Counted from the first letter of the stretch, positions 1,528-51,595 are shown. The stretch: DNA of 64,000 nucleotides from an uncultured Planctomycetaceae bacterium (GCA_963813715.1 CAWFAK010000009.1:352001-416000), one strand, 5' to 3'. The notes: generated by a model not told the origin, from the sequence alone. Program-made: numbers and translations.

Positions 1528-1894
1528 ATGACGGAAATCGCGGGCATGCGCGGCATTGCGTCGGGTGGCCGGGGCGCTCTGCGCAGCGGAAGCCCCGGAA
1601 CATTGACTCGCTTACGGCCGCCAGCATTCTATTGACGACGGTGGCCGCACCTCAACGAGCGCAGGGCCATTCGAGTAAAAGATCGGTCGGCATGCCGACC
1701 GATCGCTGACGACTAAACGGGGGCTTCCGCAAGGCGGAAGCCGCCCGTCGACGTGGTCGGGGCGATCCGTGGACGAGCCGCTCTGCCACGCACCAAATTG
1801 AAAGCGGTGGGTCGATCTAACTAGGATGGAGCGCGCGTGAGTTCGATTTTGGTTCCAAGGCACTCTTCGTGGCCGATTGGGCGGAGGGACCGAG

Positions 1895-2934: not shown

Positions 2935-3391
2935 TTTGAAGCCGACTGACGACCGGCCGCTCAGCGCTGCAATCGCCCGTAGAAAACTGATCTTGGCCAA
3001 TCGGGCGTTTATGGCAGAATGGAAATAGCCGCTCGTGCGCCACGGGCTCCGGCGCACATTGCGGCTTGAGCACAGTTGGGGTGCGCCCCAGTGCGGCGCC
3101 AGTCCGACGTCTAGCGGAACATTGGCACGGGACGGGTTTGCTGGCCGGTGGGAGCGGACGCGAGCTGCGGAGTGGATCGATCCGTTTTTGTCCGCCGGGT
3201 AAAAAAGCTCCGCATCGGAGTAGAAAAAAAGATCCCCGGCAGCGTCAGTGAGTTGAACCGACCCAAGCCGAGCGGACCGATCGAACTCCGGTCCGGACAC
3301 TTTCATCGACAGGGGGCTCAGTACTTTCACGGGGGGTTGGGTCACAATTTTTTACTGTATAGGTGCCCCACGAAATTCGTGACCCATCGGA

Positions 3392-8977: not shown

Positions 8978-9048
8978 TTACCCGACTAGGATTCGAACCT
9001 AGACTAACAGGACCAAAACCTGTTGTGCTACCATTACACCATCGGGTA
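8978..9048 (-). tRNA. tRNA-Gln(TTG)
   Basis: Acceptor stem TACCCGA/TCGGGTA, D-arm TGGTGTAATGGTAGCA, anticodon arm ACAGG-TT-TTG-GT-CCTGT, T-loop GGTTCGAATCC; CCA not encoded. Confidence 0.97.
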
Positions 9049-31827: not shown

Positions 31828-33240
31828 ACGGGCCCCTCGTCGAAGAGCTCGCTGCCGTTCCGGAGATCGCCGACGCGCTGGCCGCATTTTCCGATCAGCC
31901 CGGTCTGATTCTGTTCGATAGCGCCCTCGTGCGCGAGCCGACGGGGCGGTTCGCGTTTCTCGCCGCTGATCCCTTTGAGACGTTCGTCGTCGACCGGGCC
32001 GTGTTCGGTCACGATCCGTTCGCGCAAATTCATCGGCGGCTTACCGAACTCGAGATCGATAGTGTTCCGGGGCTGCCCCCGTTCCATGGCGGTGCGGCCG
32101 GTCTGTTGTCGTACGAGCTGGGGACCGCGTTCGAGCGGATTCCTCGCGCGAAGCACGATGAATTCCGGTTGCCGGACCTGGCCGTCGGACTTTACGACTG
32201 GGTCATCGCCTGGGACCAACGTGAGCGTCGGGCGTGGATTGTGTCGCAAGGCTTTCCCGCGACCAGTCCCCCGGAGCGCGAACGACGAGCCCGGCAGCGT
32301 CTCGACTTTGTGCGGAGTCGTTTGGCGTCTCCCGCTGCGGCCCGACCCGTCTCTTCTTCGGCCGCCGCTTTGCCCGTTCACGCTCTGGCACCCCAGTTTC
32401 CGGCCCCCGGCCTCGATGGGCTGACCAGCAATTTTTCGCGCGAAGCCTACATCCGGGCCGTCGAGCGGACGATCGAGTGGATCTTCGCCGGCGACATCTT
32501 TCAGGCGAACCTCTCGCAACGGTTGCTGTACCCGGCACACGTCGATCCGATCACGCTGGCCGGGAAACTGCGCTCGATGTAATCCGGCGCCCTTCGGCGG
32601 CGTGTTTCTCTTCGACGACTGGGCCCTGGTCAGCGCTTCGCCCGAGCGATTCGTGCAGGTGCGGGGAGCGGAGGTCGAAACGCGGCCGATCAAGGGCACG
32701 CGGCGGCGGCCGCCCACTCCCGAGGCGGACCTCTTCACGCGGGACGAGCTGCGAGAGAGCCAGAAGGACCAGGCGGAAAACGTGATGATCGTGGACCTCC
32801 TGCGAAACGATCTCTCGCGAGTCTGTGCGCCCGGCTCGATCCGCGTGCCCCAACTCTGCAGCGTGGAAACGTACGAGACTGTCCAGCACCTCGTCTCCGA
32901 AGTCCGCGGCCGACTGGAGGAGAAACGCACCGTCTGGGACTTGTGGCGGGCCGTGTTCCCGGGAGGATCGATCACCGGCGCGCCGAAAGTGCGGGCAATG
33001 GAGATCATCGCCGAATTGGAGCCGACGGTCCGCGGGCCGTATTGCGGGAGCCTGTTCTACGTCGGCTATGACGGCTCGTGCGACAGCAGCATCTTGATTC
33101 GCACGTTTGTCTGTCGGCGGGGGTGGATTGCCTGCGGTGTGGGGGGCGGCATCGTTGCCGATTCCGATCCGGCCGCCGAATATGAAGAGACGCTGCACAA
33201 AGCAGCCGGCATGCTGCGGGCACTGGGCCCGCTCAAGTGA
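31824..33240 (+). CDS. pabB: Aminodeoxychorismate synthase component I (frameshift near 32578)
   Basis: [57 protein letters not shown]. Confidence 0.9.
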
Positions 33241-34783: not shown

Positions 34784-35551
34784 CAGCGCCCCAACGGTTC
34801 GAGGAATTGCCGCGAGGCCTGCATCACGTATTGCTCCGCCCCGCCGAAGCCGATCGCCCGATAGCCTTCGTTCTGCGCCCATTTGGCCTCGTCGACGCTG
34901 CCGACGGGAAAACCGGCAGCGACGCCGTGCCGCTGGCAGGCGCGCAGTACCTTCTGCGCCGCCTCCAGCACGCGCGGATGTTGCCGCCGGCCGGGCACCT
35001 CGTAGGCCATCGCCAGGTCGCCGGTGCCGACCCAAAGCACGTCGATACCGCAGGGGGCGATTTCTTCGATGGCCTCCACCCCTTCGGGGTCTTCGATCAA
35101 GGCCAACAGCAGAACCGTGTCGTTGATCGTCGAGAAGTATTCGTCCAGCGGCACGCGCCCCCAGAATGTGCCGCGTCCCGGTCCGAAGCCGCGATTACCC
35201 AACGGCGGATAAAGGGCGGCCGAACGCAGCCGCTTCGCGTCGGCAGCGATTGCGGCAGTGCGGCAACAAGATGCCCTGCGCTCCAAGGTCGAGGGCGTGC
35301 ATCACCGCCTCGGGATCATCGTTGCGGAGCACGCGGACGATCGGCACCGTGTCGCCAGCAAAGCAGCCCTGCACCAGTCGATCGATGGTCGTGGCGTCGG
35401 CTGTGCCATGCTCGCCGTCGAGCAGCACGAAGTCAAAACCGGCGTAGCCGAGCAGCTCGCACAGCCCGGGCTCCGGCAAACGCACCGAGCTGGTCAGCAG
35501 AGTGTCGCCCGCGTTGAGGCGTTCCTTGGCCCGATTGCGACGAACTTGCAC
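34783..35551 (-). CDS. HpcH/HpaI aldolase family protein (frameshift near 35255)
   Basis: GFDFVLLDGEHG, ALDLGAQGI, YPPLGNRGFG, LIEDPEG, VGTGDL. Confidence 0.88.
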
Positions 35552-38756: not shown

Positions 38757-39311
38757 TCAGGCGGACTCGGGCCGCTCGGCCGATTCGGGAGTCTCGACCC
38801 CCGGTCGCTCGCCGACGGGGCCGTCGACGGTAAAGGCCGCGTCGCGGAGCATGGCGATTCGGCCCGTGCGGACCATTTCCAAAATTCCGAACGGACGCAT
38901 CTGCTCGATGAACGCCTCGATCTTGCTCTCGCGGCCGGAAATTTCGACCATCACGTGCTCGGGGCTGACGTCGACGATGCGGGCCCGGAAGATCTCGCTC
39001 AGCTCCTTGATCTGCGAGCGGCTGCCGTCCTTGCTGCTGATTTTCATCAACATCAAGTCGCGCTCGACGTAATCCTTCGCGGAAAAGTCGAGCACCTTGA
39101 CGACCGTGACGATCTTCTCGAGCTGCTTGCGCACCTGGTCGAGGACCCGGTCGTTGCCGTTGACGACGAACGTGATCCGGGAAAAGCTCGGGTTTTCGGT
39201 CGCGCCGACCGCCAGGCTGTCGATGTTGAAGGCCCGAGACGCCAGCATCTGAGAAATGTGGGCCAGGACCCCGGGCTGATTCATGACCAGCGCCGAGAGA
39301 ACGTGTCGCAT
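38757..39311 (-). CDS. ilvN: Acetolactate synthase small subunit
   Basis: NQPGVL..FNIDSL ACT domain, QLEKIV, ERDLML, EMVRTG. Confidence 0.95.
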   Translation of the reverse strand: MRHVLSALVMNQPGVLAHISQMLASRAFNIDSLAVGATENPSFSRITFVVNGNDRVLDQVRKQLEKIVTVVKVLDFSAKDYVERDLMLMKISSKDGSRSQIKELSEIFRARIVDVSPEHVMVEISGRESKIEAFIEQMRPFGILEMVRTGRIAMLRDAAFTVDGPVGERPGVETPESAERPESA

Positions 39312-39468
39312 AAAAAGCCTTCACCACTAACGGATTGACGGCCGACCCCCGGCCCGCGCCGCCTCGAAAGGGCAAGTTTAGAGGAGCCGCCGAGCCTTCA
39401 CAACCAAATGGCTCGAATCGGCTTGCGCGAGATGAAATCCGCGCGGGGGGCTGTTATCTTCTCACGAA

Positions 39469-39855
39469 ATGAACTGGTTTCGACACGCCTTTGCGCTCGA
39501 TCCCCCTGGCCCCCTCGAACCGACCGTCGAGGAACGGGAGGTGGTCGAGCGGCTTTGTCGAATTCTGGCTCGGCGGCGGATGCAGACCCCCGCGATCACT
39601 TTTTTGGAAATGTCGCGACCGCTCAACCGGGTTGCGGCGCAGGTCCTGTATTTCTTTCACCCCGTCGCCTCGCTTGCGCTGACAGGTGACGACTACAACC
39701 GGTTCGCGCAATTCCTCGAAAAGTCCGGCTCGATCGACTATTTGTGCCGGCGACTCGAGGACCTGTCCGCGAAGGCCGACGCTCGCACGACGACCTCTCT
39801 CCCCGAGCCGTCGCCCGTCGAGGACAATTCGGCCGCCGCTCCGCCGCGCGAATGA
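39469..39855 (+). CDS. Small conserved hypothetical protein (first gene of GlmL-like operon)
   Basis: PAITFLEMSRPLN motif; ends 9 bp before the glmL-like gene. Confidence 0.7.
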   Translation: MNWFRHAFALDPPGPLEPTVEEREVVERLCRILARRRMQTPAITFLEMSRPLNRVAAQVLYFFHPVASLALTGDDYNRFAQFLEKSGSIDYLCRRLEDLSAKADARTTTSLPEPSPVEDNSAAAPPRE

Positions 39856-39864
39856 CGCAAGCCG

Positions 39865-41668
39865 ATGGATCTCGACAAAATCAACGTCATCTTCGCGACC
39901 GACTGCGGTAGCACCACCACCAAAGCCATCCTCATCGAGAAGGTGGGCGACGGCTACCGCCAAACGTACCGCGGCGAAGCCCCCACCACCGTCGAGGAGC
40001 CGGTCGCCGACGTGACTGTCGGCGTGATCAATGCGGCGACCGAGGTGGGCGAGCTGGCCGGCCGGCGGCTGGTGAACGAGCAGGGAGAGTTGATCCGTCC
40101 GGCCCGCGGCAACGAGGGCTGCGACATCTACATCTCGACATCGAGCGCCGGCGGCGGCCTGCAGATGATGGTCGCCGGCATCGTTCGCGAAATGACCGCG
40201 GCCAGCGCCAAGCGGGCCGCGCTCGGGGCCGGGGCCATCGTCATGGACGTGATCGCCGCCAACGACAAGCGGCTCCCCCACGAGCAAATTCAGCGCATCC
40301 GCGAGCTGCGGCCCGACATGATTCTGCTCTCGGGCGGCACCGACGGTGGCAACACGGCCAAAGTGGTCGAAATCGCCGAACGGATTGCCCCGGCCCGACC
40401 GCGGCCGCGGTTCGGCACGAATTACCAGATGCCGTTGATCTACGCCGGCAATCAGGACGCGAGCGAACTCGTCCGCGACGCGCTGGGCGATAGCGTCGAG
40501 CTCTTCGTAGTCCCCAACCTGCGACCAGTGCTCGAGCGCGAAAACCTGGGGCCCGCGCGCGACCGCATTCACGATATCTTTCTCGAACACGTGATGGCCC
40601 ACGCCCCCGGCTACGACAAGCTGATTCGCTGGGCGGACGCACCCATCATGCCGACGCCCGGCGCCGTGGGCGACATTCTGCAGATGATCGCCAAGAAGGA
40701 AGGGATCAACGCGGTCGGCGTCGACATCGGCGGGGCGACCACCGACGTCTTCAGCGTCTTCTCCGGGCACGTTCAACCGCACCGTGAGCGCCAACCTGGG
40801 GATGAGCTATTCGATCTCCAACGTCTGCGCCGAAACCGGGATGGCCAACATTCTGCGGTGGGTGCACGTCGACATGAACGAGCGCACGCTCCGCAACCGG
40901 GTCAAGAACAAGATGATCCGGCCGACCACCATTCCGCAGACGCTCGAGGCGCTTATCTTCGAGCAGGCAGTCTCACGCGAGGCGCTGCGGCTGGCGTACG
41001 CACAGCACAAGGAATTCGCGACGACGCTCAAGGGCGTGCAGCAGCAGCGGACGGTCGGCGATCTGTTCAGCCAGGGGGGAGCCGGGCAGTCGATCGTCGA
41101 CAACATGGCGCTCGACCTGTTGGTGGCCTCTGGCGGCGTTCTCTCCCACGCCCCACGGATGGAACAAACGGCCGCCATGTTGATCGACGCCTTCGAACCG
41201 GAAGGCATCACCACGCTCGCCAAGGACAGCATCTTCATGATGCCCCACCTGGGAGTGCTCGCGCAGGTTCATCCGCAGGCCGCGCTCGAGGTCTTCGAGC
41301 GCGATTGCCTGGTTTACTTGGGAACGTGCGTCGCTCCGAAGGGGAACGCCTCGCCCGAAAAGAAGTGCTTCGACTATCGGCTGACCGGCCCCGGACTGAA
41401 CGAAAAAGGCGAGATCCGCGTGGGCGAAATGCGGAAGATTCCCCTGGAAGCGGGAAAGCAGGCGACGATCGTCGTCGAACCGGCCCGCGGCTTCGATTGC
41501 GGAGCCGGGCCGGGCAAGCCGGTCGAACGAGAAATTCGCGGCGGTACCGTCGGCGTCATTCTCGATGGCCGCGGTCGCCCGCTCAAATTGCCGGAACAGG
41601 AATCCGAACGACGGCAACTGCTCGGCCAATGGGTCCGAGCCCTCGATCTGTATCCCCGAGGCAGTTGA
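39865..41668 (+). CDS. GlmL/MutL-family (glutamate mutase L-like) ASKHA ATPase (frameshift at 40765-40767)
   Basis: DCGSTTTKA, SSAGGGL, AALGAGA, LSGGTDGG, MPTPGAV, VDIGGATTDVFS, RTVSANLGMSYS, DGRGRP. Confidence 0.88.
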
Positions 41669-41683
41669 AGAAGCCTTCCACGC

Positions 41684-42808
41684 ATGGCTACGTATACGCC
41701 CGGTCTCAAAGTCGTCGGCCAGATTCGGCACAGGGTCCGCCGCATCCTGCCGATTGCCGGCAACGTGCTCGTGAAGGAGGGTGACCACGTCAATGCCGAG
41801 CAGGTCGTGGCCGAAACGTTCATGCCGGGGGACGTGACGCCGATCAATCTGTCGAACGTCCTCTCGATCACGGCCAGTGAAGTGAAAGGCAGCCTGCTCA
41901 AGGCGGAAGGTGAGCGGGTCGAGCCGGGCGAGGTTCTGGCACGCACCAATGGCATCTTCGGCCTCTTCAAAAACGAATACCGGACCAAGGTGGGAGGGAC
42001 GATCGAATCGGCCTCGGCCGTCACGGGGCAGGTGATCCTTCGCGGCAAGCCGATTCCCGTGCAGGTTCGCGCCTATCTGAGCGGGACCGTCGTCGAGGTC
42101 TTGCCCAACGAAGGTGTCGTCGTTGAGGCAGACGTTTCGCTGATCCAGGGGATTTTTGGCGTCGGGGGCGAAGCCTTCGGACCGCTCGCGCTGTCCTGCC
42201 GCGAGCCGAGCGAACGGCTCGATGCCGGGCAAATCACCGCCGAACACAAAGGCAAGATCGTCATTGGCGGCGGACGGATGACAGGCGCCGCCGTCCGTCA
42301 GGCCGTGAAAGTCGGTGCCGCAGCGCTCGTTTCCGGCGGCATCGACGACCAGGATCTCAAGGAGATTCTGGGCTACGACCTGGGCGTGGCCGTCACTGGC
42401 TCCGAGAAGATCGGCCTGACCCTGATCGTGACCGAAGGCTTTGGCGAGATCGCAATGGCCGAGCGGACGTTTCGCCTGCTGGCCTCGCGGAACGGTGCGC
42501 CGGCGGCCGTCAGCGGAGCCACGCAAATTCGCGCGGGCGTGCTGCGACCGGAAATCGCCATTCCGATTCAAAATGCAGGGGCGGCTGCGGTGCGCGACGA
42601 GGCGGCACTCGACTCGACGCTGCGGGTCGGGGCCAACGTGCGAATCATCCGCGATCCGCATTTCGGCGTGATCGGCAAGGTCGCCGCATTGCCTCACGAG
42701 CTGACGACGCTCGAGTCGGGATCCAAGGCGCGCGTGCTGGAAGTGGCCGTCGACGGGGCACAGCGGATCATCGTGCCACGTGCCAACGTAGAGCTGATTG
42801 AAACCTGA
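41684..42808 (+). CDS. Hypothetical protein with two barrel-sandwich hybrid-like repeats and a C-terminal KOW-like motif
   Basis: LVKEGDHVNAEQVVA and LLKAEGERVEPGEVLA; TEGFG, GATQIRAGVLRPE; VGANVRIIRDPHFG. Confidence 0.8.
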   Translation: MATYTPGLKVVGQIRHRVRRILPIAGNVLVKEGDHVNAEQVVAETFMPGDVTPINLSNVLSITASEVKGSLLKAEGERVEPGEVLARTNGIFGLFKNEYRTKVGGTIESASAVTGQVILRGKPIPVQVRAYLSGTVVEVLPNEGVVVEADVSLIQGIFGVGGEAFGPLALSCREPSERLDAGQITAEHKGKIVIGGGRMTGAAVRQAVKVGAAALVSGGIDDQDLKEILGYDLGVAVTGSEKIGLTLIVTEGFGEIAMAERTFRLLASRNGAPAAVSGATQIRAGVLRPEIAIPIQNAGAAAVRDEAALDSTLRVGANVRIIRDPHFGVIGKVAALPHELTTLESGSKARVLEVAVDGAQRIIVPRANVELIET

Positions 42809-42839
42809 CTGATCGAGATCTGACTGACCGAGATCTGAC
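42805..42839 (+). repeat. 15-bp tandem repeat, 2.3 copies
   Basis: CTGACTGATCGAGAT CTGACTGACCGAGAT CTGAC. Confidence 0.8.
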
Positions 42840-42856
42840 GGGGCGAGAACCACGAT

Positions 42857-44161
42857 ATGAAAGCGAAAATCCCGCTCGCCTGCCGCGTCGGCTCACCTCG
42901 ATCCAGCTTGGCGCGGTATGCCGCGGGTGTCTTCGCGGTTGTCGTTCTCTTGGCGAACAGCCGTCGCAGCGCCTCAGCCGCTGTTCCGCCCGCGGCGCCG
43001 CGTCCACCCGCCGACATCAAGGCTGCCGACCATCCCTGGGACGACGGCACGAAGATCGACGTGACGTTTGCCCTGTCACCGGACGACCGCCCGGATGCGA
43101 AGCCCAAGATCGTCGCGTTTTACACAGTCGAGCGGTCTGGCGAGCGCGACGGCGCCTTCGAGCCGGTCGGCGCACCGCTCATCCCCGGTCAAGCCGCCTA
43201 TAAGACCGGCACCATGACCACCACCGTCGACAAGTGCCACCGCGGCGAGCCGTATTTCTTTCGCGTCCGAGCGGTCACCGCCGACGGCCGCAAATCCGCG
43301 CCCGTCGAAACGAGCGAGCCGGTCTACGGCGTCCGCCAATGGTTCGACGGCGATCATTTGTGGCTGGCAATAATCATGGCCATTGTCTGCGGCACGATCG
43401 TCGCGTGCATCGAGCTGGCGCGGCGGGGTTGGCCGGTCAAAATCCGTCGCATCGCCGGGCTCGACGCGGTCGAAGAAGCCGTGGGCCGCGCCACCGAGAT
43501 GGGTCGCACCTGCTTTTTCATCGCGGGCGTTCAGGACCTGAATGAAATGCAGACGGTGGCGGGAATCACCGTGCTGTCGCACGTCGCGAAGGTCGCCGCC
43601 GAATACGATGCTCGCCTCGAGATGCCCACGGCCCGTTCGCTGGTGATGACGACGGCCCGCGAGACGGTGCAGGCTTCGTACCTGGCGGCCGGCCGGCCCG
43701 AATCGTACGTCGAGGACAACATCTATTACGTCACCGACGAGCAGTTCGGCTTCGCCGCATTCGCGACAGGGAAAATGGTTCGCGAGAAACCGGCAGCCTG
43801 CTTTTACATGGGCTGCTTTTTCGCTGAATCATTGATGCTTGCCGAGACGGCCAACACGGTCGGGGCGATTCAAATCGCCGGCACGGCCGAGCCGGCGCAG
43901 CTCCCGTTCTTCGTTGCGGCCTGCGACTACACGCTGATCGGCGAGGAGTTTTATGCCGCGTCGGCGTACCTCTCGGGGGATCCCGATCAACTCGGCAGCC
44001 TCAAAGGCCAGGACTTCGGTAAGTTGTTCGTCACCTGTTTACTCGTGATTGGCTCGCTGCTCGCCACCGGAGTCGTACTGGCCGGTCGAGTGAATCTGCC
44101 GGCAGCCCGGTCGGCACTCTCCCAGGCGACGACCTACTTAACCGACACGATTTTGAAATAA
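42857..44161 (+). CDS. FN3-like + DUF6754-type membrane protein
   Basis: Signal peptide; YFFRVRAV FN3-like strand; IRRIAGLDAVEEAVGRATEMG, QLPFFVAACDYTLIGEEFYAASAYLS. Confidence 0.8.
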   Translation: MKAKIPLACRVGSPRSSLARYAAGVFAVVVLLANSRRSASAAVPPAAPRPPADIKAADHPWDDGTKIDVTFALSPDDRPDAKPKIVAFYTVERSGERDGAFEPVGAPLIPGQAAYKTGTMTTTVDKCHRGEPYFFRVRAVTADGRKSAPVETSEPVYGVRQWFDGDHLWLAIIMAIVCGTIVACIELARRGWPVKIRRIAGLDAVEEAVGRATEMGRTCFFIAGVQDLNEMQTVAGITVLSHVAKVAAEYDARLEMPTARSLVMTTARETVQASYLAAGRPESYVEDNIYYVTDEQFGFAAFATGKMVREKPAACFYMGCFFAESLMLAETANTVGAIQIAGTAEPAQLPFFVAACDYTLIGEEFYAASAYLSGDPDQLGSLKGQDFGKLFVTCLLVIGSLLATGVVLAGRVNLPAARSALSQATTYLTDTILK

Positions 44162-44174
44162 GAGAGCGACCCGA

Positions 44175-46032
44175 ATGAAGCGGATGATTCCCTTACTGAT
44201 CGCGGCGATGGCCGGCTACGTGCTTGTCGCCTCGCGCTTCATTCCGCTCGCCGAAAAATGGGGCGAAGTCGAGGCGATCTGGTTCGACGTCCTGGCGGCC
44301 ATTGCCTTCGTGCTCGGCGGCGGGAGCCTGCTCAAGCTGCATCTGCGTCGCATCAGCGACCGCGCGACGGGCTGGGGCTATTCGGCCATAACGCTGGCCG
44401 CCTTCCTCGCCACCTTGTACGTGGGCGTTGCGAAGACGGGGGCCCGCCCCTCGCAGGAGCAGGAATTCTACGGCGAATCGTTTGCCGTCCTGAAATTGGA
44501 GGATCTCCCCGAAAGCCTGACCTATCGAGTGACCGGGAGAATCCCCGAGCGGGCGGACGACGAACCGTTGCCGCTTTCCGTGCAGCGGCAGCTCAGCCAA
44601 TCGGGCGGTGACCTCGTGTTTCACGGTTGGATTTCGGGGCAACAACAAGGCGAACTCTTGAGATTCAAGGAAGACCTGGCCTGGCAATGCGCCGTTGAAA
44701 AACTCTTTGCGACGGCTCAACCCCCCGCCGCGTTCAAGGGCAAGGTGACGTATCTCGCCGACTACTCCCAGCTCAGCTTTCGGGGATTCATGACCGACGC
44801 CGACCATGAGACGTTGCTCAAGCTCGGCATGAATGAGGCGTACGTGGCCGCCGTCGAAGCGCTGTGGAAGGCGAGCCGGGCCGAGTCGGAAGTCTCCGTC
44901 GAGTGGCTGCCTCCCGGCTTCAGCATCCCTGCCGCCCAGCGAGCGTATCTCTCGTACGACGAAGGCAAACACAAGCTGCGGATTCGCGGGCCGATGTCGG
45001 TCGCTCTTCGCGATGAGCTGGCCCGCGACCATTTCCCGCTCGTGCGTCCAACCACGGCGGAACAGCGGGCCGCCTTCCTCAACGAACTCGAATCCCACGG
45101 CGGAAAGCTGAGCGAAGTACAAGCTCGTGCCCTCGACGCGGTGCTCGCCAACGGCTGGCCGGTCGACGGCCTGCGACTCGTTTTGGACGAAGCGGGCCAT
45201 GCGCTCCCCGCAGAAAAGTCAGCCTGTGACCTCTACCAGGAGCAGCAGGCCGCCAAGGGAGTGGCTGCAGCCACTCCCAAACCGACGCCGCCGAAAGCGG
45301 AACCCGACGTGAAATTAAACGACCGCCAAAAGGCTGCGATCGATGAATTCGTCCGTGAATCGACCGAGACCGTCGACGACTTGGCCGCGCCGCTTGATGG
45401 CGGCCGGTCCATTCACGGCGCGCCAGGAGGCCTCGCTTCGGGAGTTTTTCGCGAAGGTGCCGACCGTCGGCGACCAGAAGCTCGAGGCGTGCATCGCCAT
45501 TCTCCGCGTCGGTCCGCTCCCACGGGACCAGCGCAACTTTCTCCGGGACGATTACCGTCACCAGAACCAGTGGCGGCAGACCGTGGGCGACCTCTTCGTG
45601 CGGGCGCACAAAGTGAAATATCCCTGGTCGGGTCAGTACAACTCGCCCGGCTCCTGGTTCGGCTGGGCTTACGAATACATCTTCAAGCCGTGCACGGCGA
45701 CGATGTTCGCCCTCTTGGCCTTTTACGTCGCGTCCGCCGCCTTTCGTGCCTTCAGGGCCAAGAACTTCGAGGCCCTGCTGCTTTTGGGGACGGCCTTCAT
45801 CATCCTCTTGAGCCAAACGTTCGCCGGCTATTGGCTCACCTCGTGGCTCCCCTCCGACCCGCAGCAGAATGCACTCGCGTGGCTACGAATGGAGAACCTG
45901 AAGATCCTGATCATGCGAGTCTTTGCGACGGCGGGCACCCGCGCGATCATGATCGGCATCGCGCTGGGCCTCGCCTCGACGTCGATCAAGATCATGTTGG
46001 GGCAAGACCGCTCGTACGTGGGGAGGGACTGA
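44175..46032 (+). CDS. Multi-TM membrane protein with a large soluble insertion (frameshift near 45390)
   Basis: N-terminal TMs; C-terminal ATMFALLAFYVASAAFRAFRA and RAIMIGIALG...LGQDR. Confidence 0.8.
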
Positions 46033-46035
46033 CCC

Positions 46036-46902
46036 ATGCGGTTCAACTGGGACAACATCGATCGCCGCTGGATCTTCCTGATGATGCTCATCACGGTCGC
46101 GGGACCGATCATTTGGCAGCTCGCCTTCCCGGAAATTCCGACCCCCTACGCCCGCGCGGTCTTCGACGCGATTGAAGATTTGAAGCCGGGCGACAAAGTG
46201 CTCGTCGCCTTCGATTATGACCCAGCCAGCGAAGCCGAGCTGGGCCCGATGGCCACCGACTTCGTGCACCACTGCTGCGAGAAGAAGGTGAAGATGTATT
46301 TCGTTTCTCTCTGGCCGGTCGGTCCCGTCATGGTCCAGGACGCCATTCGCAACATCATCGAGGCCGACTACCCCCAGATGGTGTACGGGCAGGACTATGT
46401 CAACCTGGGCTACAAGTCGGGCTACGAGGGCGTGATTAAGGTCATCGTGACGGACCTTCGCAGCCTCTACCCAACCGATACCCGCGGCAACAGCATCGAT
46501 CAGCTTCCGATGTGCCGCGACGTCAAGAACATTCAGAGCATGAAGCTCATCGTCGACGTCAGTGCCGGCTACGCAGGGGCGAAAGAATGGGTCCAATACG
46601 CGGCCGTTCCTTACGCCGACAAGATGAAGCTTGTCAGCGGTTCGACCGGCGTGCAGTCGCCGCAGCTCTTCCCGTATCTTCCGGACCAGATGGCCGGGCT
46701 GTTGGGGGGAATCAAAGGGGCAGCGGAGTACGAAATGCTGGTCAACGAGAGGTACAGTGGCCCGACACCCGCCCCGAAGTATCAGGAAGCCCTCCGCCGG
46801 ATGGGTCCGCAGCTTTTCGCCCACCTGTTGATGATCGGCCTGATCATCGCGGGCAACGTGATCTATTTCACCCAACGCCGCCGTGAGGGCCGCTCGCGAT
46901 GA
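46036..46902 (+). CDS. Conserved hypothetical membrane-anchored protein
   Basis: IDRRWIFL TM, FDYDP..AEL.PM, YGQDYVNLGY, GLLGGIKGAAEYE, C-terminal TM. Confidence 0.8.
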   Translation: MRFNWDNIDRRWIFLMMLITVAGPIIWQLAFPEIPTPYARAVFDAIEDLKPGDKVLVAFDYDPASEAELGPMATDFVHHCCEKKVKMYFVSLWPVGPVMVQDAIRNIIEADYPQMVYGQDYVNLGYKSGYEGVIKVIVTDLRSLYPTDTRGNSIDQLPMCRDVKNIQSMKLIVDVSAGYAGAKEWVQYAAVPYADKMKLVSGSTGVQSPQLFPYLPDQMAGLLGGIKGAAEYEMLVNERYSGPTPAPKYQEALRRMGPQLFAHLLMIGLIIAGNVIYFTQRRREGRSR

Positions 46903-47774
46903 AAAACGAGACCCGGATTTGGCTCGTGATTTTTGTGTTCTTCGCCGGCTTCCTGGCGTGGCGGGTGGGTGACGCCGGCGCCAGCCGGCAGTACGTGCGG
47001 GAACTCGATGGGCGCGTCGCTCCCGCGACCCTCGGCGACTTGGTTGCGGGAACGGCGCAGTTCAGCTTTTCGCGCACGGTCGGAGTCTGGGTTGCGGCCG
47101 CCCTGACGCTCGGCATCTTTTCGTTCCTCTATCGCGATAACGCGTTCTACAAGCTGGCAGAATCCGTGCTGGTCGGCGTGTCGGCCGCCTATTGGATGGT
47201 GGTGGCATATTGGGACGTTCTGATTCCCAACCTCTTTGGCAAGCTCTGGCCATCCTGGGTGCAATCTTGGGCCATTCCGGGTCTTTCGCCGCAGCACGAC
47301 GAGTTCTGGTACGCCTACTTCGTTCCGCTCGGGTTGGGAGTCATGCTCTTGTGGAGGCTCTCGCCCCGCGGCGGCTGGATCGGCGTATGGCCCCTGGCTT
47401 TTACGATCGGTGCCACCGCCGGATTGAGGTTGGTCGGCTATTTTCAGGCCGACTTCCTCGGCCAAATCCGCAACGGCATCGTGTCGCTGGCGATTTTCAA
47501 GGACTCTCATTTTGAGTGGGAACGCTCGATCGAAAATGTGGTGCTCGTCACCGGCACCCTGGCTTGCCTGTCCTACTTCTTCTTTTCCTTCGAGCACAAA
47601 GGCGCGCTCGGTCGCATCTCTCGGGTTGGCGTGTGGGTGCTGATGATCACCTTCGGCGCCGGCTTCGGGTACACGGTGATGGGACGCATCGCTTTGTTGG
47701 CCGGCCGACTCGAATTCCTGTTTGACGATTGGCTGTGGCTGATCGATCAGAACCATACGCGCATCTGGCAGTGA
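46899..47774 (+). CDS. Conserved hypothetical multi-TM protein
   Basis: LTLGIFSFLYRDNAFYKLAE, LSYFFFS, MITFGAGFGYTVMGR; ATGA overlap. Confidence 0.8.
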   Translation: MKNETRIWLVIFVFFAGFLAWRVGDAGASRQYVRELDGRVAPATLGDLVAGTAQFSFSRTVGVWVAAALTLGIFSFLYRDNAFYKLAESVLVGVSAAYWMVVAYWDVLIPNLFGKLWPSWVQSWAIPGLSPQHDEFWYAYFVPLGLGVMLLWRLSPRGGWIGVWPLAFTIGATAGLRLVGYFQADFLGQIRNGIVSLAIFKDSHFEWERSIENVVLVTGTLACLSYFFFSFEHKGALGRISRVGVWVLMITFGAGFGYTVMGRIALLAGRLEFLFDDWLWLIDQNHTRIWQ

Positions 47775-47787
47775 CGGAGTCGAAGCT

Positions 47788-48870
47788 TTGCGGCGTTTCT
47801 TCGCATTGATTCTGGCAGCCGCGGTCCTCCACTCGGCCCAGCCGACGCGGATTCTTAGCGACGAACCGCCGGTCTACCGCGAGCACCAGGATCTGCGCTA
47901 TTACCTCGACGCCCGTGGGGATCGACATCCGATCCGAACGGTTGCCGACTGGGAGATCCGTCGCGCGCACATCCTGGCGCACCTGCAGGAAGTGATGGGG
48001 CCACTGCCGCACCCGTCGCACCCGGTGTCGCTCGACGTCCGGACGCTCGAGACGGTTTCGCTCGGCCCCATCGTCCGCCGTAAAATCGACTACCACACCG
48101 ATTCACCAAAACGCCGCGTGTCAGCCTACTTGTTTGTGCCGGCCAATAGCTCGGGCCGGCACCCGGCCGTGCTGTGCCTGCACCAAACCATCCACATCGG
48201 CAAAGAGGAGCCGGCGGGCCTGGGCTCGAATCGAGACCTCCAATACGCGCTCGAATTGGCGCAGCGAGGCTACGTGACGCTGGCTCCCGACTACCCGTCG
48301 TTCGGCGAATACAAATACGACTTTCCTCCGCAGGATGGATACGTCAGCGGCACGATGAAAGCGATTTACGACAACATTCGCGCGATCGACTTGTTGCAGT
48401 CGCTGCCGGACGTCGACCCGGAACGCGTCGGCTGCATCGGCCACTCGCTGGGCGGACACAATTCGATCTTTACGGCGACGTTCGATCCGCGGATCAAGGC
48501 CGTCGTTTCCAACTGCGGCTTCACGCGGTTCCACAAGTACTACGGCGGCAAACTCAAAGGCTGGGACAGCCCGCGCTATATGCCGCGGATCGCCAGCGTT
48601 TATGGCGACAATCCGGACCGAGTTCCGTTCGATTTTCCGGAAATCATCGCGGCGCTGGCTCCGCGGGCCTTTCTGGCGAGTTCCCCACTGCACGACGACA
48701 ACTTCGAAGTGTCGGGCGTCCGGGACGTGATCGCTGCTGCCCGGCCGATCTACGCGCTCTTCGGCGTGCCGGACAACCTGGCCGCCAATTACCCGGATGC
48801 CAAGCATTCATTCCCGCCAGCGGCGCGCGAGGTGGCTTACAAGTTCTTGGATCGCCACCTCAAGCGGTAA
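47788..48870 (+). CDS. Secreted alpha/beta hydrolase (dienelactone hydrolase-like)
   Basis: Signal peptide, GCIGHSLGG nucleophile elbow, D and HSF triad candidates. Confidence 0.88.
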   Translation: MRRFFALILAAAVLHSAQPTRILSDEPPVYREHQDLRYYLDARGDRHPIRTVADWEIRRAHILAHLQEVMGPLPHPSHPVSLDVRTLETVSLGPIVRRKIDYHTDSPKRRVSAYLFVPANSSGRHPAVLCLHQTIHIGKEEPAGLGSNRDLQYALELAQRGYVTLAPDYPSFGEYKYDFPPQDGYVSGTMKAIYDNIRAIDLLQSLPDVDPERVGCIGHSLGGHNSIFTATFDPRIKAVVSNCGFTRFHKYYGGKLKGWDSPRYMPRIASVYGDNPDRVPFDFPEIIAALAPRAFLASSPLHDDNFEVSGVRDVIAAARPIYALFGVPDNLAANYPDAKHSFPPAAREVAYKFLDRHLKR

Positions 48871-49826
48871 GTCGCGACGAAGGATCGAAGAGCAGACCAA
48901 GGCGAAAAGACACCGCTTATTGCATGCGCGGCTCTGAAGACGGCGGCGGCATGCTGCTTAGAGCGCGTCGGCCACTTGCCGCTCGGGCGCAGGCGGGCCA
49001 TATAGCTCATCGACCGCTCCTGGAAGTCGGGGCAGTCCTTCGCCAGGCGACGGCTGATCGGCTTGGGATCCGAGTTCGTCCGCAGGTCATTCAAATATGC
49101 CAGCAGCGTGCGTTTGGCCTCGGGAGGGCCGTGCATCATGAAGTGCACCCACGCCCAGGCTTCCTGATAGTCGGAGCGGCGCATCGCGGCGTTGTCGTCG
49201 AAGTTTTCCAGCCGCTTCAGGTCCGGCTGCCAGCCCTGGGCCAGCAACATCGAGAGCTTGGTGGCATACTCGCGATTGATGCCGCCCGGCTGCGAGCCCG
49301 GGATCTCGAAGTATTCTGCCAGGCCCTCGTCGAGCCAGAGCGGCACCCGCTTCATCGCCGAATGCAAGAGGCCGTGCGTGTATTCGTGTCGCAGGTCTTC
49401 ACGCACGCTCTGTCCCCAATGCGTGTAAACCGCCAGCTCCGTTGCCGAGCCGACAAAATACGCGCTTCGCGGCGGTAGCTTGGGGTAGGTCACCGCCATG
49501 TACTTGCGATATTCAGTCTCGTTGTTGAACAGGTAGATGACGACCGGGTCGCGCTGCAACGGCAAGTCGAGCACCTTGGCTTCCTGTTCGCGGAGCGTGG
49601 TCAGCTCGCGAATCAGCTCGTGATCCTTCTGCAACTTGAAATTGCTCAAGACGAGCAATTGGTCGCGCTCGCACTTCACCTCGTACTTGACTGGCAGGCC
49701 GATCGGACGCTCGACCGATTGGCACCCCGTGAAAGCCAGCACGACCGCGATCAACAAGGCCGCGGCCCGGGCCGTCTGGCCAAGCGGATTTCCGGACGCC
49801 GTTGCAAGTGTGGACAGGCTATCCAT
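48837..49826 (-). CDS. DUF1570-type zinc metallopeptidase-like lipoprotein
   Basis: FTGC lipobox, HEYTH, PLWLDEGLAEYF, YQEAWAWVHF. True stop may be near 48958 via a frameshift. Confidence 0.8.
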   Translation of the reverse strand: MDSLSTLATASGNPLGQTARAAALLIAVVLAFTGCQSVERPIGLPVKYEVKCERDQLLVLSNFKLQKDHELIRELTTLREQEAKVLDLPLQRDPVVIYLFNNETEYRKYMAVTYPKLPPRSAYFVGSATELAVYTHWGQSVREDLRHEYTHGLLHSAMKRVPLWLDEGLAEYFEIPGSQPGGINREYATKLSMLLAQGWQPDLKRLENFDDNAAMRRSDYQEAWAWVHFMMHGPPEAKRTLLAYLNDLRTNSDPKPISRRLAKDCPDFQERSMSYMARLRPSGKWPTRSKQHAAAVFRAAHAISGVFSPWSALRSFVATYRLRWRSKNL

Positions 49827-51595
49827 GCGGGGACGAGAGGCTGCGATCGCGCGCAAAGAGACTTCCATTCGGAGGCGAAGCGATCGCCCCGATATTTCTT
49901 GAGAAATCGCAGCCGGTGCGTCAGGCGCAACTCGGGAAACGCCGACAGACTGGCTTCGAGCTGTCCGAGCATGCGGTTGACGCTTCGTTGCGGCAGAAAG
50001 CGCCGGCGGACGATGCGATCTGCGCCGCCGATCTGAACCGAGCAGTCGCCGGCGTCGACGTTGACCAGGAGATCCGCGGCCGACAGGCGTCGATGGACGA
50101 GCGAAAATTCCCGCATTCGCGCCAGTTCGCCAGCCAGCATCCGCGCACTGGCGTTGATCCAGGCTTCCCGTTGCCGCGGTGAGAGACCGGGGAATTGTTG
50201 AGCCAGAAACGTCGCCGGCGTCACATTGCGGCCCGAACGCTCGACAACGAGGATTTCTCGAACTCGCGACACGGAACGCGTTTCGAGATAGAGCAGCGTT
50301 CGCGGCGTCGACACGCCTCGCCGACGCAGGGCGTGCGTCATCTCCCAGACGCGCCGCGTCGCCGACCAACCGAGTCGTGGCAAGAGATCGCGCCAGCCCA
50401 GCGGACGGGACGTTTCTCGGACCTCGCAGCGGAGGGAAGTCCCGGCTGCCCACAGGTCCACCACCGCCGCCCGAACGGAATTCGTCCGCCGCAGCCACAG
50501 GCGGACACGGTCGGCGCGGAAGAGCGTGTCGGGATTGGCACGCAACTCGAGCACCTGATCCGTTCCGAGGATCGCCAGGCCCCGACAGCGAATGCCAGGC
50601 GAGTCGCCCACGATCAGCCGACGATTGGAACGTTGCCACTTCTTGTCGTAGCGGCGCTGTTCTTGCCTGAGCGCATGTCTGCAAAACGCTTCAATCTGCC
50701 CGGCCAGTTGACGGTGCGAGCGATGCTCCGCGCGGGCAACAGTCGTGGACGAGCTACTTGTGAGCGTGGCCGCGGAATCCGCGTGGACTTCACGCAGATA
50801 AGCGTCCAAAAAACGCCAGCGGTCGGCGCGACCGGCCGTTTGAAAGAAGTTGAAGAGTCCAAACAAATCCCATCGCGCCCGTGCCGCGCGGCGAAAAATA
50901 ATGCCCCATTTGCGCCGCGGCCGCACGCCCTGCAGATCGATGAGCTTCAATCGGATCGGCGACGGGACACTCATGCAGGCCGCGTCATCCGTCACCTCGA
51001 CCAGAAGATTGGCCGGATGCAAATCGCGATGGACGAGGCCCGCCCGATGCAGCCGGCCACACAGCCTTCCGAGCGCACGGGCCAATTCGCGTCGAAACGC
51101 AGGGGTCCGAAGCGAAGCGTACTGCGGATCGCGGGCCACGCTGTCTAAGGGAATTGCTTTCTCGATCGCCGAGCTAGCGAGGAAACTGTCTCGGGCGAGC
51201 GGGCCGCGTGACTGGCAGCCGAGGGCGACGCAGGTCATCGTCTCGATGTTGGCGGCCGCCACCGCCTGCACCGCGTGGGCCTCGCGGGCAGCGGGCGTAC
51301 CGCGCAGTGTGTTTCGCAAGATTTCCCACGTGTGCGACGTCTTGAAGTGCTTGAGGAAGATGACGCCCGAGGGCAGCTCGACGCGATACACCGATCGATG
51401 CGGCCCCGATTTGACGGTCGTCACGCCATCAAGAACGCCGCTCGCGTTCCGATCGACCGTGCCACTTGAAGCCAGTGCAGACGCGTGCGGCGACGCGGAG
51501 CACAACGTCAGAAAGCCCGCGTCATACAGCTCGCGCACCACGCGTTCGTCGCCGTGCCAGGTCACGTCGCCCGGAGTGCGCGGACTCAGAGTCAT
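49751..51595 (-). CDS. Lipopolysaccharide kinase (Kdo/WaaP/InaA family), tandem domains
   Basis: VKSGPHRSVYR, FLKHF, LHRAGLVHRDLHPANLL, LIDL, RWRFLDAY; second degenerate domain. Confidence 0.8.
   Translation of the reverse strand: MTLSPRTPGDVTWHGDERVVRELYDAGFLTLCSASPHASALASSGTVDRNASGVLDGVTTVKSGPHRSVYRVELPSGVIFLKHFKTSHTWEILRNTLRGTPAAREAHAVQAVAAANIETMTCVALGCQSRGPLARDSFLASSAIEKAIPLDSVARDPQYASLRTPAFRRELARALGRLCGRLHRAGLVHRDLHPANLLVEVTDDAACMSVPSPIRLKLIDLQGVRPRRKWGIIFRRAARARWDLFGLFNFFQTAGRADRWRFLDAYLREVHADSAATLTSSSSTTVARAEHRSHRQLAGQIEAFCRHALRQEQRRYDKKWQRSNRRLIVGDSPGIRCRGLAILGTDQVLELRANPDTLFRADRVRLWLRRTNSVRAAVVDLWAAGTSLRCEVRETSRPLGWRDLLPRLGWSATRRVWEMTHALRRRGVSTPRTLLYLETRSVSRVREILVVERSGRNVTPATFLAQQFPGLSPRQREAWINASARMLAGELARMREFSLVHRRLSAADLLVNVDAGDCSVQIGGADRIVRRRFLPQRSVNRMLGQLEASLSAFPELRLTHRLRFLKKYRGDRFASEWKSLCARSQPLVPAWIACPHLQRRPEIRLARRPGPRPC

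Follow-up and report, generated by a model that had tools for sequence, protein, structure and literature searches.

A conserved seven-gene operon with a GlmL-like ASKHA ATPase probably encodes an undescribed ATP-driven membrane machine in Planctomycetota and other phyla

Seven genes on the + strand (g1-g7), at 39469-47774 of a window of 64,000 nucleotides (the whole stretch of DNA analysed) from an uncultured soil planctomycete (Planctomycetaceae), probably encode an undescribed ATP-driven membrane machine, because the genes stay together in several phyla and match no studied system. No paper on the g1-g7 system was found in the literature. On balance, we favour the view that the seven products form a single B12-independent, ATP-driven machine of the cytoplasmic membrane, which may be a transporter. 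An initial annotation had described seven co-directional genes with tiny gaps or overlaps. The spacing stands (9, 15, 48, 13, 3 and -4 bp from g1 to g7, taking g2 as 39865-41668 and g5 as 44175-46032), with the start of g7 running 4 bases into the end of g6, but g2 and g5 are not single frames in the window, each needing a +1 frame change. The genes are as follows.

39469..39855, + strand: g1, small soluble protein of 128 aa, from its translation
39865..41668, + strand: g2, long MutL/GlmL-type ASKHA ATPase, ~597 aa when intact, by family PF13941
41684..42808, + strand: g3, soluble partner of 374 aa, from an AlphaFold2 model and fold searches
42857..44161, + strand: g4, FN3 and DUF6754 membrane protein of 434 aa, by PF20539 and an FN3 profile
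44175..46032, + strand: g5, polytopic membrane protein, ~610-630 aa form, by predicted topology
46036..46902, + strand: g6, bitopic membrane protein of 288 aa, from its translation and predicted topology
46899..47774, + strand: g7, polytopic membrane protein of 291 aa, from its translation and an AlphaFold2 model

The N-terminal part of g2 lies at 39865-40770 and its C-terminal part at 40772-41668 in the next frame, with the break near 40763-40771; g5 is divided into 44175-45390 and 45397-46032, with the break near 45390. Each break corresponds to a one-base insertion, and a +1 frame change, when compared with three relatives. The two frame changes, as the window is given, would be expected if the operon were decaying in this genome, real frameshift mutations having turned g2 and g5 into pseudogenes. 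This is nevertheless very unlikely. The inserted bases are single and fall in short runs of G or C, no further stops interrupt either gene, and in the nearest relative (91-100% protein identity) both are intact. Among near-identical short-read contigs, one letter is absent from the g2 site, at 40763 or 40768, in all four public runs examined, and from the g5 site, at 45390, in three, the fourth run having no coverage there. One of the g2-site contigs comes from an RNA library and differs from the window at 6 of 1080 bases. Three other nearby genes are split in the same way, within ~46 kb of synteny shared with a 98%-complete relative; the planctomycete's own genome is 82.6% complete and in only 18 contigs. 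The extra bases in g2 and g5 are most likely assembly errors, because six relatives, in which each gene is one frame, and the short-read contigs lack them and three nearby genes are split alike. Both genes are therefore most likely intact in the organism. The RNA-library contigs also hint at transcription, although such libraries can hold DNA.

The arrangement of g1-g7 is beyond chance, recurring in 39 of 80 related loci and in at least three phyla (Planctomycetota, Acidobacteriota and Neomarinimicrobiota). Gene order is conserved: in these 39 loci the seven genes are complete and collinear on one strand, while 28 more of the 80 hold part of the set, still collinear and in nearly every case truncated at a contig end. 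Four Planctomycetaceae genomes (G016, G041, G042 and G043) have a dispersed set; all four keep all seven genes at separate places, and only g3 and g4 still adjoin. Elsewhere, g4 occurs without g3 within ~10 kb in 5 of the 80 loci, and the g3-g4 pairing is therefore not universal. Across phyla the flanks share a single gene, for a small two-helix protein, which occurs at 12 of the 39 loci examined; the remaining neighbours are lineage-specific. Across 151 Planctomycetota genomes, DUF6754 is found in 40, MutL above its cut-off in 39 and DUF6754 together with the long MutL in 38; the two genomes with DUF6754 and without MutL are in 410 and 660 contigs. In Neomarinimicrobiota g2 and g3 are fused in one open reading frame, of 1006 aa at one locus (L036) and 999 aa at another (L042), and two more such fusions, of 995 and 1003 aa, occur among relatives of g3 (P0131 and P0214). 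The linkage, the co-occurrence and the fusion of g2 with g3 together suggest that g2 physically serves the membrane proteins.

g2 is an ASKHA (actin/Hsp70-fold) ATPase by family and by its intact phosphate loops, and is predicted to hydrolyse ATP. Its N-terminal and C-terminal pieces match PF13941 (MutL) with 303 and 122.2 bits, above the gathering cut-off of 27 bits, and an intact orthologue from genome G002 reaches 429.2 bits, aligned to positions 2-450 of the profile; a C-terminal extension of ~115 aa continues past the end of the Pfam MutL model. Both phosphate loops read from the sequence at the outset, DCGSTTTK and DIGGATTD, were found in g2. All 36 aligned g2 sequences carry ATDCGSTTTKAI and VDIGGATTD unchanged, and both are present in the window, so that the phosphate-1 (DxGxT) and phosphate-2 (DxGGxTxD) loops that mark ASKHA proteins are conserved. 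The g2 protein of the window's genus shares 66-76% identity over ~597 aa with its counterparts in Acidobacteriota, Neomarinimicrobiota or Phycisphaerales, as against 36-66% for the other subunits in the same comparison. Horizontal transfer could account for part of this high cross-phylum identity.

Conservation as high as that of g2, whose mean column identity over the 36 sequences is 73%, is unusual for an enzyme-like protein and is seen in polymer-forming proteins. It would suit a membrane-anchored cytoskeletal or scaffolding element, with a g2 polymer tethered by g4-g7, and the list of actin-fold families in PMC5597319 includes several polymers bound to membrane partners. The same list, however, counts glutamate mutase (the GlmL family) as non-polymerising, and a g2 that can be fused to a 375-aa partner is easier to reconcile with a fixed complex than with a filament; such an element is given very little credence.

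The closest known relatives of g2 are GlmL/MutL of the coenzyme-B12 glutamate (methylaspartate) mutase, and Or-4, which share with it the PF13941 family and the ASKHA phosphate loops. The family models are named after glutamate mutase, and the best NCBIfam match of g2 is the GlmL equivalog model NF040745. If g2 were an ordinary GlmL for a B12-dependent mutase encoded elsewhere, its membrane-gene neighbourhood would be coincidental, and this is extremely unlikely. All three NCBIfam cut-offs are missed by g2: NF040745 gives 234.9 bits with the G002 orthologue and 233 with an Acidobacteriota orthologue (191.2 and 43.9 with the window pieces) against a cut-off of 475; NF040744 (Or-4, a GlmL-related ornithine degradation protein) gives 205 against 600; and TIGR01319 (the GlmL subfamily model) gives 174.3 and 163.3, for G002 and Acidobacteriota respectively, against 204.05. 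The tight co-occurrence with DUF6754, in 38 of 39 MutL-bearing genomes, also argues against an ordinary GlmL. In the genomes searched, g2 shows no link with a mutase, its partners there being DUF6754 and membrane genes. A single MutL-like gene linked to a mutase was found, in genome G081, where it adjoins GlmE and a B12-binding subunit; its product is shorter than the ~600 aa of g2, at 416 aa, and is 27% identical to it over 256 residues.

It had been claimed at the outset that the window holds no mutase or B12-binding domain, and a scan of 21 flanking open reading frames agrees, having matched neither a mutase family nor a B12-binding domain; the four B12-binding matches of the genome all lie outside the window. 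Met_asp_mut_E has no match in the 82.6% of this genome that is present, and exceeds its cut-off in 2 of the 151 Planctomycetota genomes, neither of which has DUF6754. No glutamate mutase (GlmE) match was found in any of the 40 DUF6754-bearing genomes. Lys-AminoMut_A was matched in 0 of 5 genomes, in a weak search that left control genomes without a match too. The planctomycete's own genome also encodes an acyl-CoA-mutase-type B12 protein, which has a MeaB chaperone domain built in.

The second cytoplasmic component would be g3, for which hydropathy predicts no membrane segment. The initial annotation had recognised a soluble protein with barrel-sandwich hybrid and KOW domains, and these stand, but the swivelling domain in the middle had been missed. 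In an AlphaFold2 model (pLDDT 86, pTM 0.71) combined with fold searches, g3 begins with a barrel-sandwich hybrid in which a beta domain is nested (~14-150), continues with a swivelling beta/beta/alpha domain (~151-295) and ends in a KOW/SH3-like barrel (~311-374). Weak Pfam matches among 45 g3 members are to Biotin_lipoyl (39 of 45), RnfC_N (28), KOW (25) and NQRA_N (7). Structural matches of the N-terminal domain include RnfC (8ahx_C, Z 7.0, 28% identity over 64 residues) and NqrA (4u9o_A, Z 6.9, 26% over 61), and HlyD, CusB and biotin carriers score equally.

RnfC and NqrA, of the Rnf and Na+-NQR complexes, resemble g3 in being soluble, in being encoded beside membrane subunits and in their N-terminal barrel-sandwich hybrid. 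The likeness is confined to that one small domain: no other RnfC/NqrA domain was matched in g3, and no Rnf or Nqr family or membrane subunit in g4-g7, and g3 was rejected as a member of either family. Lipoyl and biotinyl carriers have a modifiable lysine at the tip of a hairpin. In g3 the hairpin is followed by A-x-T-F-M-P-G-D, with no lysine in the invariant or near-invariant columns, and a carrier role of this kind was likewise rejected.

The swivelling domain of g3 (151-295) best matches that of PTS Enzyme I (2wqd_A, Z 9.3, rmsd 2.7, 107 residues aligned), followed by rifampin phosphotransferase (Z 8.8). g2 in turn weakly matches Hydantoinase_A (E 4.3e-5), and its family lies near ATP-dependent enzymes of the hydantoinase/oxoprolinase type. 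These matches would accord with phosphoryl transfer or group translocation, in which g2 acts as a kinase and the g3 swivel, like that of PTS Enzyme I, passes either a phosphoryl group or the substrate on to the membrane module. Such a scheme is improbable, as g3 lacks the conserved histidine: no histidine is invariant in 45 aligned g3 sequences, in which Asp-Asp follows the conserved Gly-Gly, and none of the 45 matches the Pfam family PEP-utilizers, even at E 1. Proteins of the same fold that are not phosphocarriers score comparably (RraA, Z 8.8; aconitase X small subunit, Z 8.1). A PEP-utilising phosphocarrier domain was thus dismissed for g3, the resemblance being one of fold.

The small protein g1 has a conserved core of ~100 aa across 32 aligned homologues from several phyla, with the motif region W-x-K-H-A-F-A ... 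L-E-M-x-R-P-L-N ... F-L-E-x-R-G-S-I-D-Y; it matches no Pfam or NCBIfam family and has no predicted membrane segment. The topologies of the membrane subunits are predictions from hydropathy and the positive-inside rule. g4 matches DUF6754 (PF20539) over residues 160-405 with 391.1 bits (E 2.3e-117; cut-off 27 bits). Although the single g4 of the window has no Pfam fn3 match at E 0.01, a profile of 46 g4 sequences searched against PDB sequences finds titin and other FN3 proteins at positions ~25-125 (best E 2e-35), in agreement with its first description as an FN3 and DUF6754 protein. The predicted order is an N-terminal signal or anchor, an outside FN3 domain, a helix, the cytoplasmic DUF6754 domain (~200 aa) and a C-terminal helix.

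Predicted topology also confirms g5, g6 and g7 as the three further membrane proteins that had been proposed, none of which matches a Pfam or NCBIfam family above threshold. In most phyla g5 has a core of ~230 aa with six helices; here and in most of the Planctomycetaceae genomes examined, a ~380 aa insert, predicted to face outside, follows helix 3. Short-form g5 weakly matches DUF7521 in 22 of 46 members, and 4-5 of the 46 g5 members give weak matches to ABC-related membrane models. g6, conserved in 48 aligned homologues, is predicted to have an N-terminal helix, an outside-facing domain of ~228 aa and a C-terminal helix. g7 was modelled as mostly long helices (pLDDT 72.7), and this model, of middling confidence (pTM 0.48), gave no structural match, the best of 48,161 chains reaching a Z of 4.6. 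Jointly, g4-g7 have at least 16 predicted helices and domains on both sides of the membrane. No subunit maps to a known transporter, either by family (g1, g5-g7) or by the fold search with g7, the only membrane subunit modelled.

In the machine proposed here, g2 and g3, probably with g1, would constitute a cytoplasmic ATPase module. g3 may connect g2 with g4 at the latter's cytoplasmic DUF6754 domain; when the operon is dispersed, g3 and g4 are the last genes to remain neighbours. As with Hsp70 and its ASKHA relatives, the g2 clamp would close and open with the binding and hydrolysis of ATP, and the g4-g7 membrane module would transmit this movement to the outward parts, namely the g4 FN3 domain, the g5 insert and the 228-aa domain of g6. 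The machine would thereby handle a substrate at the membrane or move it across, most likely as a primary transporter; a role in envelope assembly or quality control is a less likely alternative. ASKHA proteins are not known to drive transporters.

A related possibility is a chaperone or maturation device anchored in the membrane, in which g2 would use ATP to open, repair or load a membrane or envelope client held by g4-g7, much as GlmL is said to do for glutamate mutase. FN3 and KOW/SH3-like domains, present in g4 and g3 respectively, are usual protein-binding modules, and family searches of the subunits, with a fold search for g7 among g4-g7, brought up neither a substrate-binding family nor a transporter fold. 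The ASKHA fold is common to Hsp70/DnaK, as set out in PMC5597319. In PMC4682846 the nearest characterised relatives of g2 are described as chaperones reactivating an enzyme, glutamate mutase, and no other role has been described for the family. Against such a device, no candidate client gene is linked across phyla, the shared flank consisting of the two-helix protein, and four membrane proteins with so many predicted helices would be large for a mere anchor. It is considered rather unlikely.

The proposed machine can be compared with two further kinds of system. PilM with PilN/PilO, and GspL of type II secretion, pair an actin-fold cytoplasmic protein with bitopic membrane partners bearing outward-facing domains. 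The g1-g7 module is similar in combining a cytoplasmic ASKHA protein, g2, with membrane proteins that carry outward-facing domains; the actin-fold side of this comparison draws on the family list of PMC5597319. It differs in having two polytopic proteins and no Pil or Gsp Pfam match in g1 or g3-g7, and among the flanking genes scanned there is none for a secretin, a pilin or a hexameric secretion ATPase. The general layout is also that of primary transporters of the ABC and ECF kinds, in which one operon encodes a soluble ATPase module along with several membrane subunits and an outward alpha/beta-type domain. Here, however, the ATPase has the ASKHA fold rather than a P-loop, and no match to a transporter family, ABC and ECF included, exceeds its threshold.

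Collectively, the absence of glutamate mutase from the DUF6754-bearing genomes, the conserved gene order and the lack of a match to a known transporter in the family searches and with the g7 model support the initial reading that the ATPase serves a membrane complex, which may be a transporter, an exporter or an envelope modifier, and not a mutase. The spread of the system is patchy, with DUF6754 in 40 of 151 Planctomycetota genomes and in 0 of 14 model genomes, so that most bacteria either dispense with its function or achieve it by other means.

The seven genes g1 to g7 lie on the + strand between 39469 and 47774 of the window and are separated by 9, 15, 48, 13, 3 and -4 bases, as was claimed in the initial annotation.

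The seven genes of the locus (window coordinates, strand, product)
g1, 39469-39855, +, small protein without a Pfam or NCBIfam family
g2, 39865-41668, +, ATPase matching Pfam MutL (PF13941)
g3, 41684-42808, +, soluble protein
g4, 42857-44161, +, membrane protein matching DUF6754 (E 2.3e-117)
g5, 44175-46032, +, membrane protein without a Pfam or NCBIfam match
g6, 46036-46902, +, membrane protein without a Pfam or NCBIfam match
g7, 46899-47774, +, membrane protein without a Pfam or NCBIfam match

Both phosphate loops attributed to the ATPase at the outset, DCGSTTTK and DIGGATTD, are found in g2. The description of g4 as an FN3 plus DUF6754 protein also holds, the FN3 domain being recognised at its N-terminus when a profile of 46 g4 sequences is compared with the PDB (titin and others, E 2e-35). 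The divergent genes ilvN and ilvC lie upstream of the set. Downstream, 13 bases 3' of g7, is an alpha/beta hydrolase gene (47788-48870, +; weak Peptidase_S9, DLH and esterase matches), which may be co-transcribed with g1-g7 in this genome; it occupies the same position at four loci from relatives of the genus (L011, L015, L016 and L017) and is absent from the recurrent flanking genes of 39 loci in other lineages. Promoter and terminator scans of 39000-49200 gave no signal beyond shuffled controls, and an Rfam search at gathering scores returned a tRNA (8978-9048) as its sole match and no cobalamin riboswitch. In two metatranscriptome libraries, contigs matching the stretch at 95-99% identity extend over 28 of its 30 bins; since such libraries can contain DNA, this coverage is a mere hint of expression. 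Elsewhere in the window, a 480-aa protein composed of DUF6513, a pterin-binding domain and PterinBD-DUF4346 (30385-31827, +) may fall among the tetrahydromethanopterin-type C1 genes that planctomycetes are known to carry, and a flagellin gene (57946-59769, +) encodes 607 aa with Flagellin_N, Flagellin_C and a long middle region.

Neither g2 nor g5 is one continuous open frame in the window as given, and the initial annotation is silent on both breaks. Past DVFSVFSG the frame of g2 becomes arginine-rich nonsense, the true continuation, FNRTVSANLGMSYS, lying in the next frame; the frame of g5 shifts near 45390. It might be supposed that the operon is decaying in this genome and that the frameshifts are real mutations. 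The evidence points instead to assembly errors. Both genes read in one frame in six relatives, and in DNA alignments the window carries a single surplus base at each break, within short runs of G or C. Contigs of all four public runs lack one letter at 40763 or 40768 in g2, and those of the three runs covering 45390 in g5 all lack one letter there; aside from a one-letter gap, a contig from an RNA library differs from the window at 6 of 1080 bases. Other genes are split in the same way. A 98%-complete relative (G009) supplied a 52.6-kb contig whose ORFs were searched against the genome; leaving aside rows near position 3000 of the contig, where the joining of two loci had duplicated one base, six of the 66 ORF queries matching the window region, many of them overlapping shadow ORFs, were divided between two frames. 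Of these, five correspond to genes (g2, g5, a kinase-like gene of 886 aa and genes of 271 and 513 aa), and the remaining one is a shadow ORF broken at a point between genes. Finally, the genome is 82.6% complete by marker genes, yet consists of 18 contigs, and such low completeness in few contigs fits widespread indel errors. Real decay of the operon is thus very unlikely.

The three further split genes, judged against the same relative, are the 886-aa gene (Kdo/WaaP-kinase-like plus DUF1570), the 271-aa gene and the 513-aa gene, with breaks at window 49838-49853, 35222-35265 and 32573-32575 (contig C9 of the genome, 401838-401853, 387222-387265 and 384573-384575). They indicate that indel errors occur across the whole assembly, and therefore that gene calls in this genome need frameshift-aware reading. 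At 42841, in the g3-g4 spacer, one letter is missing from a single short-read contig (run X1); this may be another assembly indel error or a strain difference.

The MutL match of g2 would suggest a GlmL protein, the helper of B12-dependent glutamate mutase. The earlier observation that the window contains no B12 mutase or B12-binding domain holds: the genome's four B12-binding domains all lie elsewhere, one each in a MeaB-fused protein, in methionine synthase, in a radical-SAM protein and in an AI-2E-type transporter. The last of these, a 628-aa protein (locus L023, contig C4 of the genome, 16629-19883; ORF 1309-3195, -), joins an AI-2E transporter domain to B12-binding_2 and B12-binding domains, a fusion that looks unusual. 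g2 is the sole MutL-family gene of the genome, in which, at 82.6% completeness, glutamate mutase E has no match. Among 151 Planctomycetota genomes that are 90% complete or better, sampled in addition to this one, DUF6754 is found in 40, MutL above cut-off in 39 and both in 38. Glutamate mutase E scores above cut-off in two of the 151, both of which are without DUF6754. Lys-AminoMut_A (PF09043) was matched in none of five genomes, a result of little weight because the control genomes were equally without a match.

One of the mutase E carriers (G081) has a MutL-like gene of 416 aa adjoining those for GlmE and a B12-binding subunit, an example of the mutase-linked form in this phylum; over 256 residues its product shares 27% identity with g2. 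An intact g2 orthologue also scores under all three NCBIfam GlmL-type cut-offs (234.9 against 475, 205 against 600 and 174.3 against 204.05), and a search of PDB sequences with g2 returned nothing at E 0.1. Since no mutase link was seen in these genomes and the scores fall under the cut-offs, g2 is a member of the broad Pfam MutL family outside GlmL proper; that it is an ordinary GlmL can practically be dismissed.

In a scan of one genome per species, 420 stretches encode relatives of g4. The best 80 of these were analysed, and come from Planctomycetaceae, Phycisphaerae, Isosphaeraceae, Acidobacteriota/Terriglobia and Neomarinimicrobiota. Gene order is kept across these phyla: among the best 80 loci, all seven genes are collinear on one strand in 39 and a further 28 are collinear fragments that in nearly every case stop at the end of a contig. 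The remainder comprise six loci with g3-g4 only, five with g4 only, one with g1 inverted and one with g4-g7 in two tandem copies. In this last locus (L101, from an uncultured bacterium) the membrane module g4-g5-g6-g7 is repeated in tandem and no g1-g3 were detected in the 10 kb upstream. g2 is 66-76% identical over its full length between the genus of the window and other phyla, compared with 36-66% for the other six proteins, and an alignment of 36 g2 sequences has a mean column identity of 73%. At two loci from Neomarinimicrobiota, g2 is continuous with g3 in a single ORF of about 1000 aa. A library of 1.84 billion proteins, as cluster representatives, holds 3369 relatives of g3 at E <=0.001 and 1034 at E <=1e-30, among them two g2-g3 fusions of 995 and 1003 aa. 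DUF6754 had no match in 14 model genomes tested.

In 12 of 39 loci examined, from several phyla, an eighth gene, g0, precedes g1 on the same strand (for example L058, 1488-2177). Its product of about 150 aa has two membrane helices and a weak match to a bacterial PH domain (bPH_6, E 0.0011, below cut-off); a single query did not find it in the genome of the window (best E 0.09). plsX-fabH-fabD lie downstream of the set in six loci of Phycisphaerae/Isosphaeraceae type. Collectively, the neighbouring genes (ilv plus hydrolase, plsX-fabH-fabD, ftsY/pheT) give no consistent pointer to a substrate.

The genes are scattered in four genomes, namely G016, Planctomicrobium sp. SH664 (locus L044), Planctomicrobium sp. 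SH661 (L033) and Thalassoglobus neptunius KOR42 (L041). g1, g2, g5, g6 and g7 are each found at other sites, g3-g4 being flanked by ftsY and pheT in a Planctomicrobium genome, and the full set of seven is present in all four. Since all seven are kept without an operon, selection maintains the whole set. g3-g4 is the most persistent pair, and g3 is for this reason placed at the interface with g4; the pairing is breakable, as the loci with g4 alone demonstrate.

The structure model of g3 (pLDDT 86, pTM 0.71) has three parts. The protein had been described as two barrel-sandwich hybrid-like repeats plus a KOW domain; the hybrid and KOW signals are borne out, and a swivelling middle domain, absent from that description, is added. 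Residues 14-150 are modelled as a barrel-sandwich hybrid within which a beta domain is nested, with matches to HlyD and urea carboxylase (Z 7.1), RnfC (Z 7.0) and NqrA (Z 6.9). Residues 311-374 are modelled as a KOW/SH3-like barrel resembling the Spt5 KOW (Z 7.7; Foldseek probability 1.0, target TM 0.81), and Spt5 KOW is also the sole match of the g3 profile among PDB sequences (E 0.079). Weak Pfam matches of 45 g3 members are consistent with both end domains. Between them, residues 151-295 are predicted to form a swivelling beta/beta/alpha domain, matching PTS Enzyme I (Z 9.3), rifampin phosphotransferase and RraA (Z 8.8) and the aconitase X small subunit (Z 8.1). Despite the fold shared with PTS Enzyme I and rifampin phosphotransferase, the alignment contains no conserved histidine in the swivel, nor a conserved lysine in the hybrid barrel. 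For this reason g3 is not read as a phospho- or lipoyl-carrier, and it is quite improbable that the seven genes encode a phosphotransfer system.

Hydropathy finds no membrane segment in g1 or g3. For the remaining proteins, hydropathy and the positive-inside rule suggest that g4 would place its FN3 domain on the outer face and its DUF6754 domain in the cytoplasm, that the core of g5 would have six helices with both ends inside and a long loop outside, and that g6 would expose on the outside a 228-aa domain flanked by two helices. For g7, hydropathy gives at least five helices and the structure model (pLDDT 72.7, pTM 0.48) eight. A search of 48,161 chains returned no structural relative of this model, the top score being Z 4.6, and neither a new nor a known fold is demonstrated. 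The DUF6754 part of g4 matched no PDB sequence, and the ESM Atlas gave no usable match for g4 residues 160-434 or for g6. Weak per-member Pfam matches are uninformative for g5 (DUF7521 in 22 of 46, best E 1.8e-4; Acyl_transf_3 in 13 of 46), and none recurs for g6. Paralogy was rejected for g4 and g6, which hhalign aligns over 27 membrane-helix columns at a probability of 9%, and for g5 and g7 (0.2%).

In this genus and most Planctomycetaceae genomes examined, g5 is lengthened by an insert of about 380 aa in its predicted outward loop; a form of about 230 aa is found in one Planctomycetaceae member (G023, 231 aa) and most other lineages. The insert (window 44460-45590; also in locus L016, 9905-11761, and in frames of 608-630 aa in the genomes G016, G041, G042 and G043) has no Pfam match, and short helical motifs of the form T-x-x-Q-x-A-x-L-x-E recur in it.

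All seven genes are inherited as a set, some lineages fuse g2 to g3, the ATP-binding loops of the ASKHA fold are retained in g2, and the membrane proteins are predicted to have domains on both faces. It is likely that g1-g7 encode a B12-independent complex of an ATPase with membrane proteins. Within it, g2-g3, perhaps with g1, would form a cytoplasmic nucleotide-driven clamp that docks via g3 onto the DUF6754 domain of g4 and powers conformational work by the g4-g7 module; this module would in turn handle a substrate at or across the membrane. Worded with this mechanism, a B12-independent ATP-driven membrane machine is somewhat favoured; that it is a transporter in particular is a tentative suggestion. 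GlmL itself is described in one paper as a chaperone for glutamate mutase (PMC4682846), and is listed with non-polymerising actin-fold proteins in another (PMC5597319). A membrane-anchored chaperone is an unlikely identity for the seven-protein set, and a cytoskeletal tether a highly improbable one.

More speculatively, and doubtfully at present, the set might represent a primary active membrane machine of a new class, in which an ASKHA (actin/Hsp70-fold) motor, rather than a P-loop, P-type or rotary one, would act through a g2-g3 clamp on DUF6754 to drive transport via a four-protein module unlike known transporters. No paper describing the seven-gene system or naming DUF6754 or PF13941 was found in a literature search with most subscription journals outside its coverage, and among the papers listed as mentioning GlmL no title or abstract deals with the system.

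For the branch of the family to which g2 belongs, the database label of B12-enzyme helper is contradicted by the present data, and many genome annotations are therefore probably wrong. Since Planctomicrobium sp. SH661, Planctomicrobium sp. SH664 and Thalassoglobus neptunius KOR42 are carriers available in culture, knock-outs and purification are feasible. This is a neglected seven-protein system whose ATPase is strongly conserved across phyla and, if the coupling of ATPase to membrane proteins holds, it would constitute a new way to power work at the membrane.
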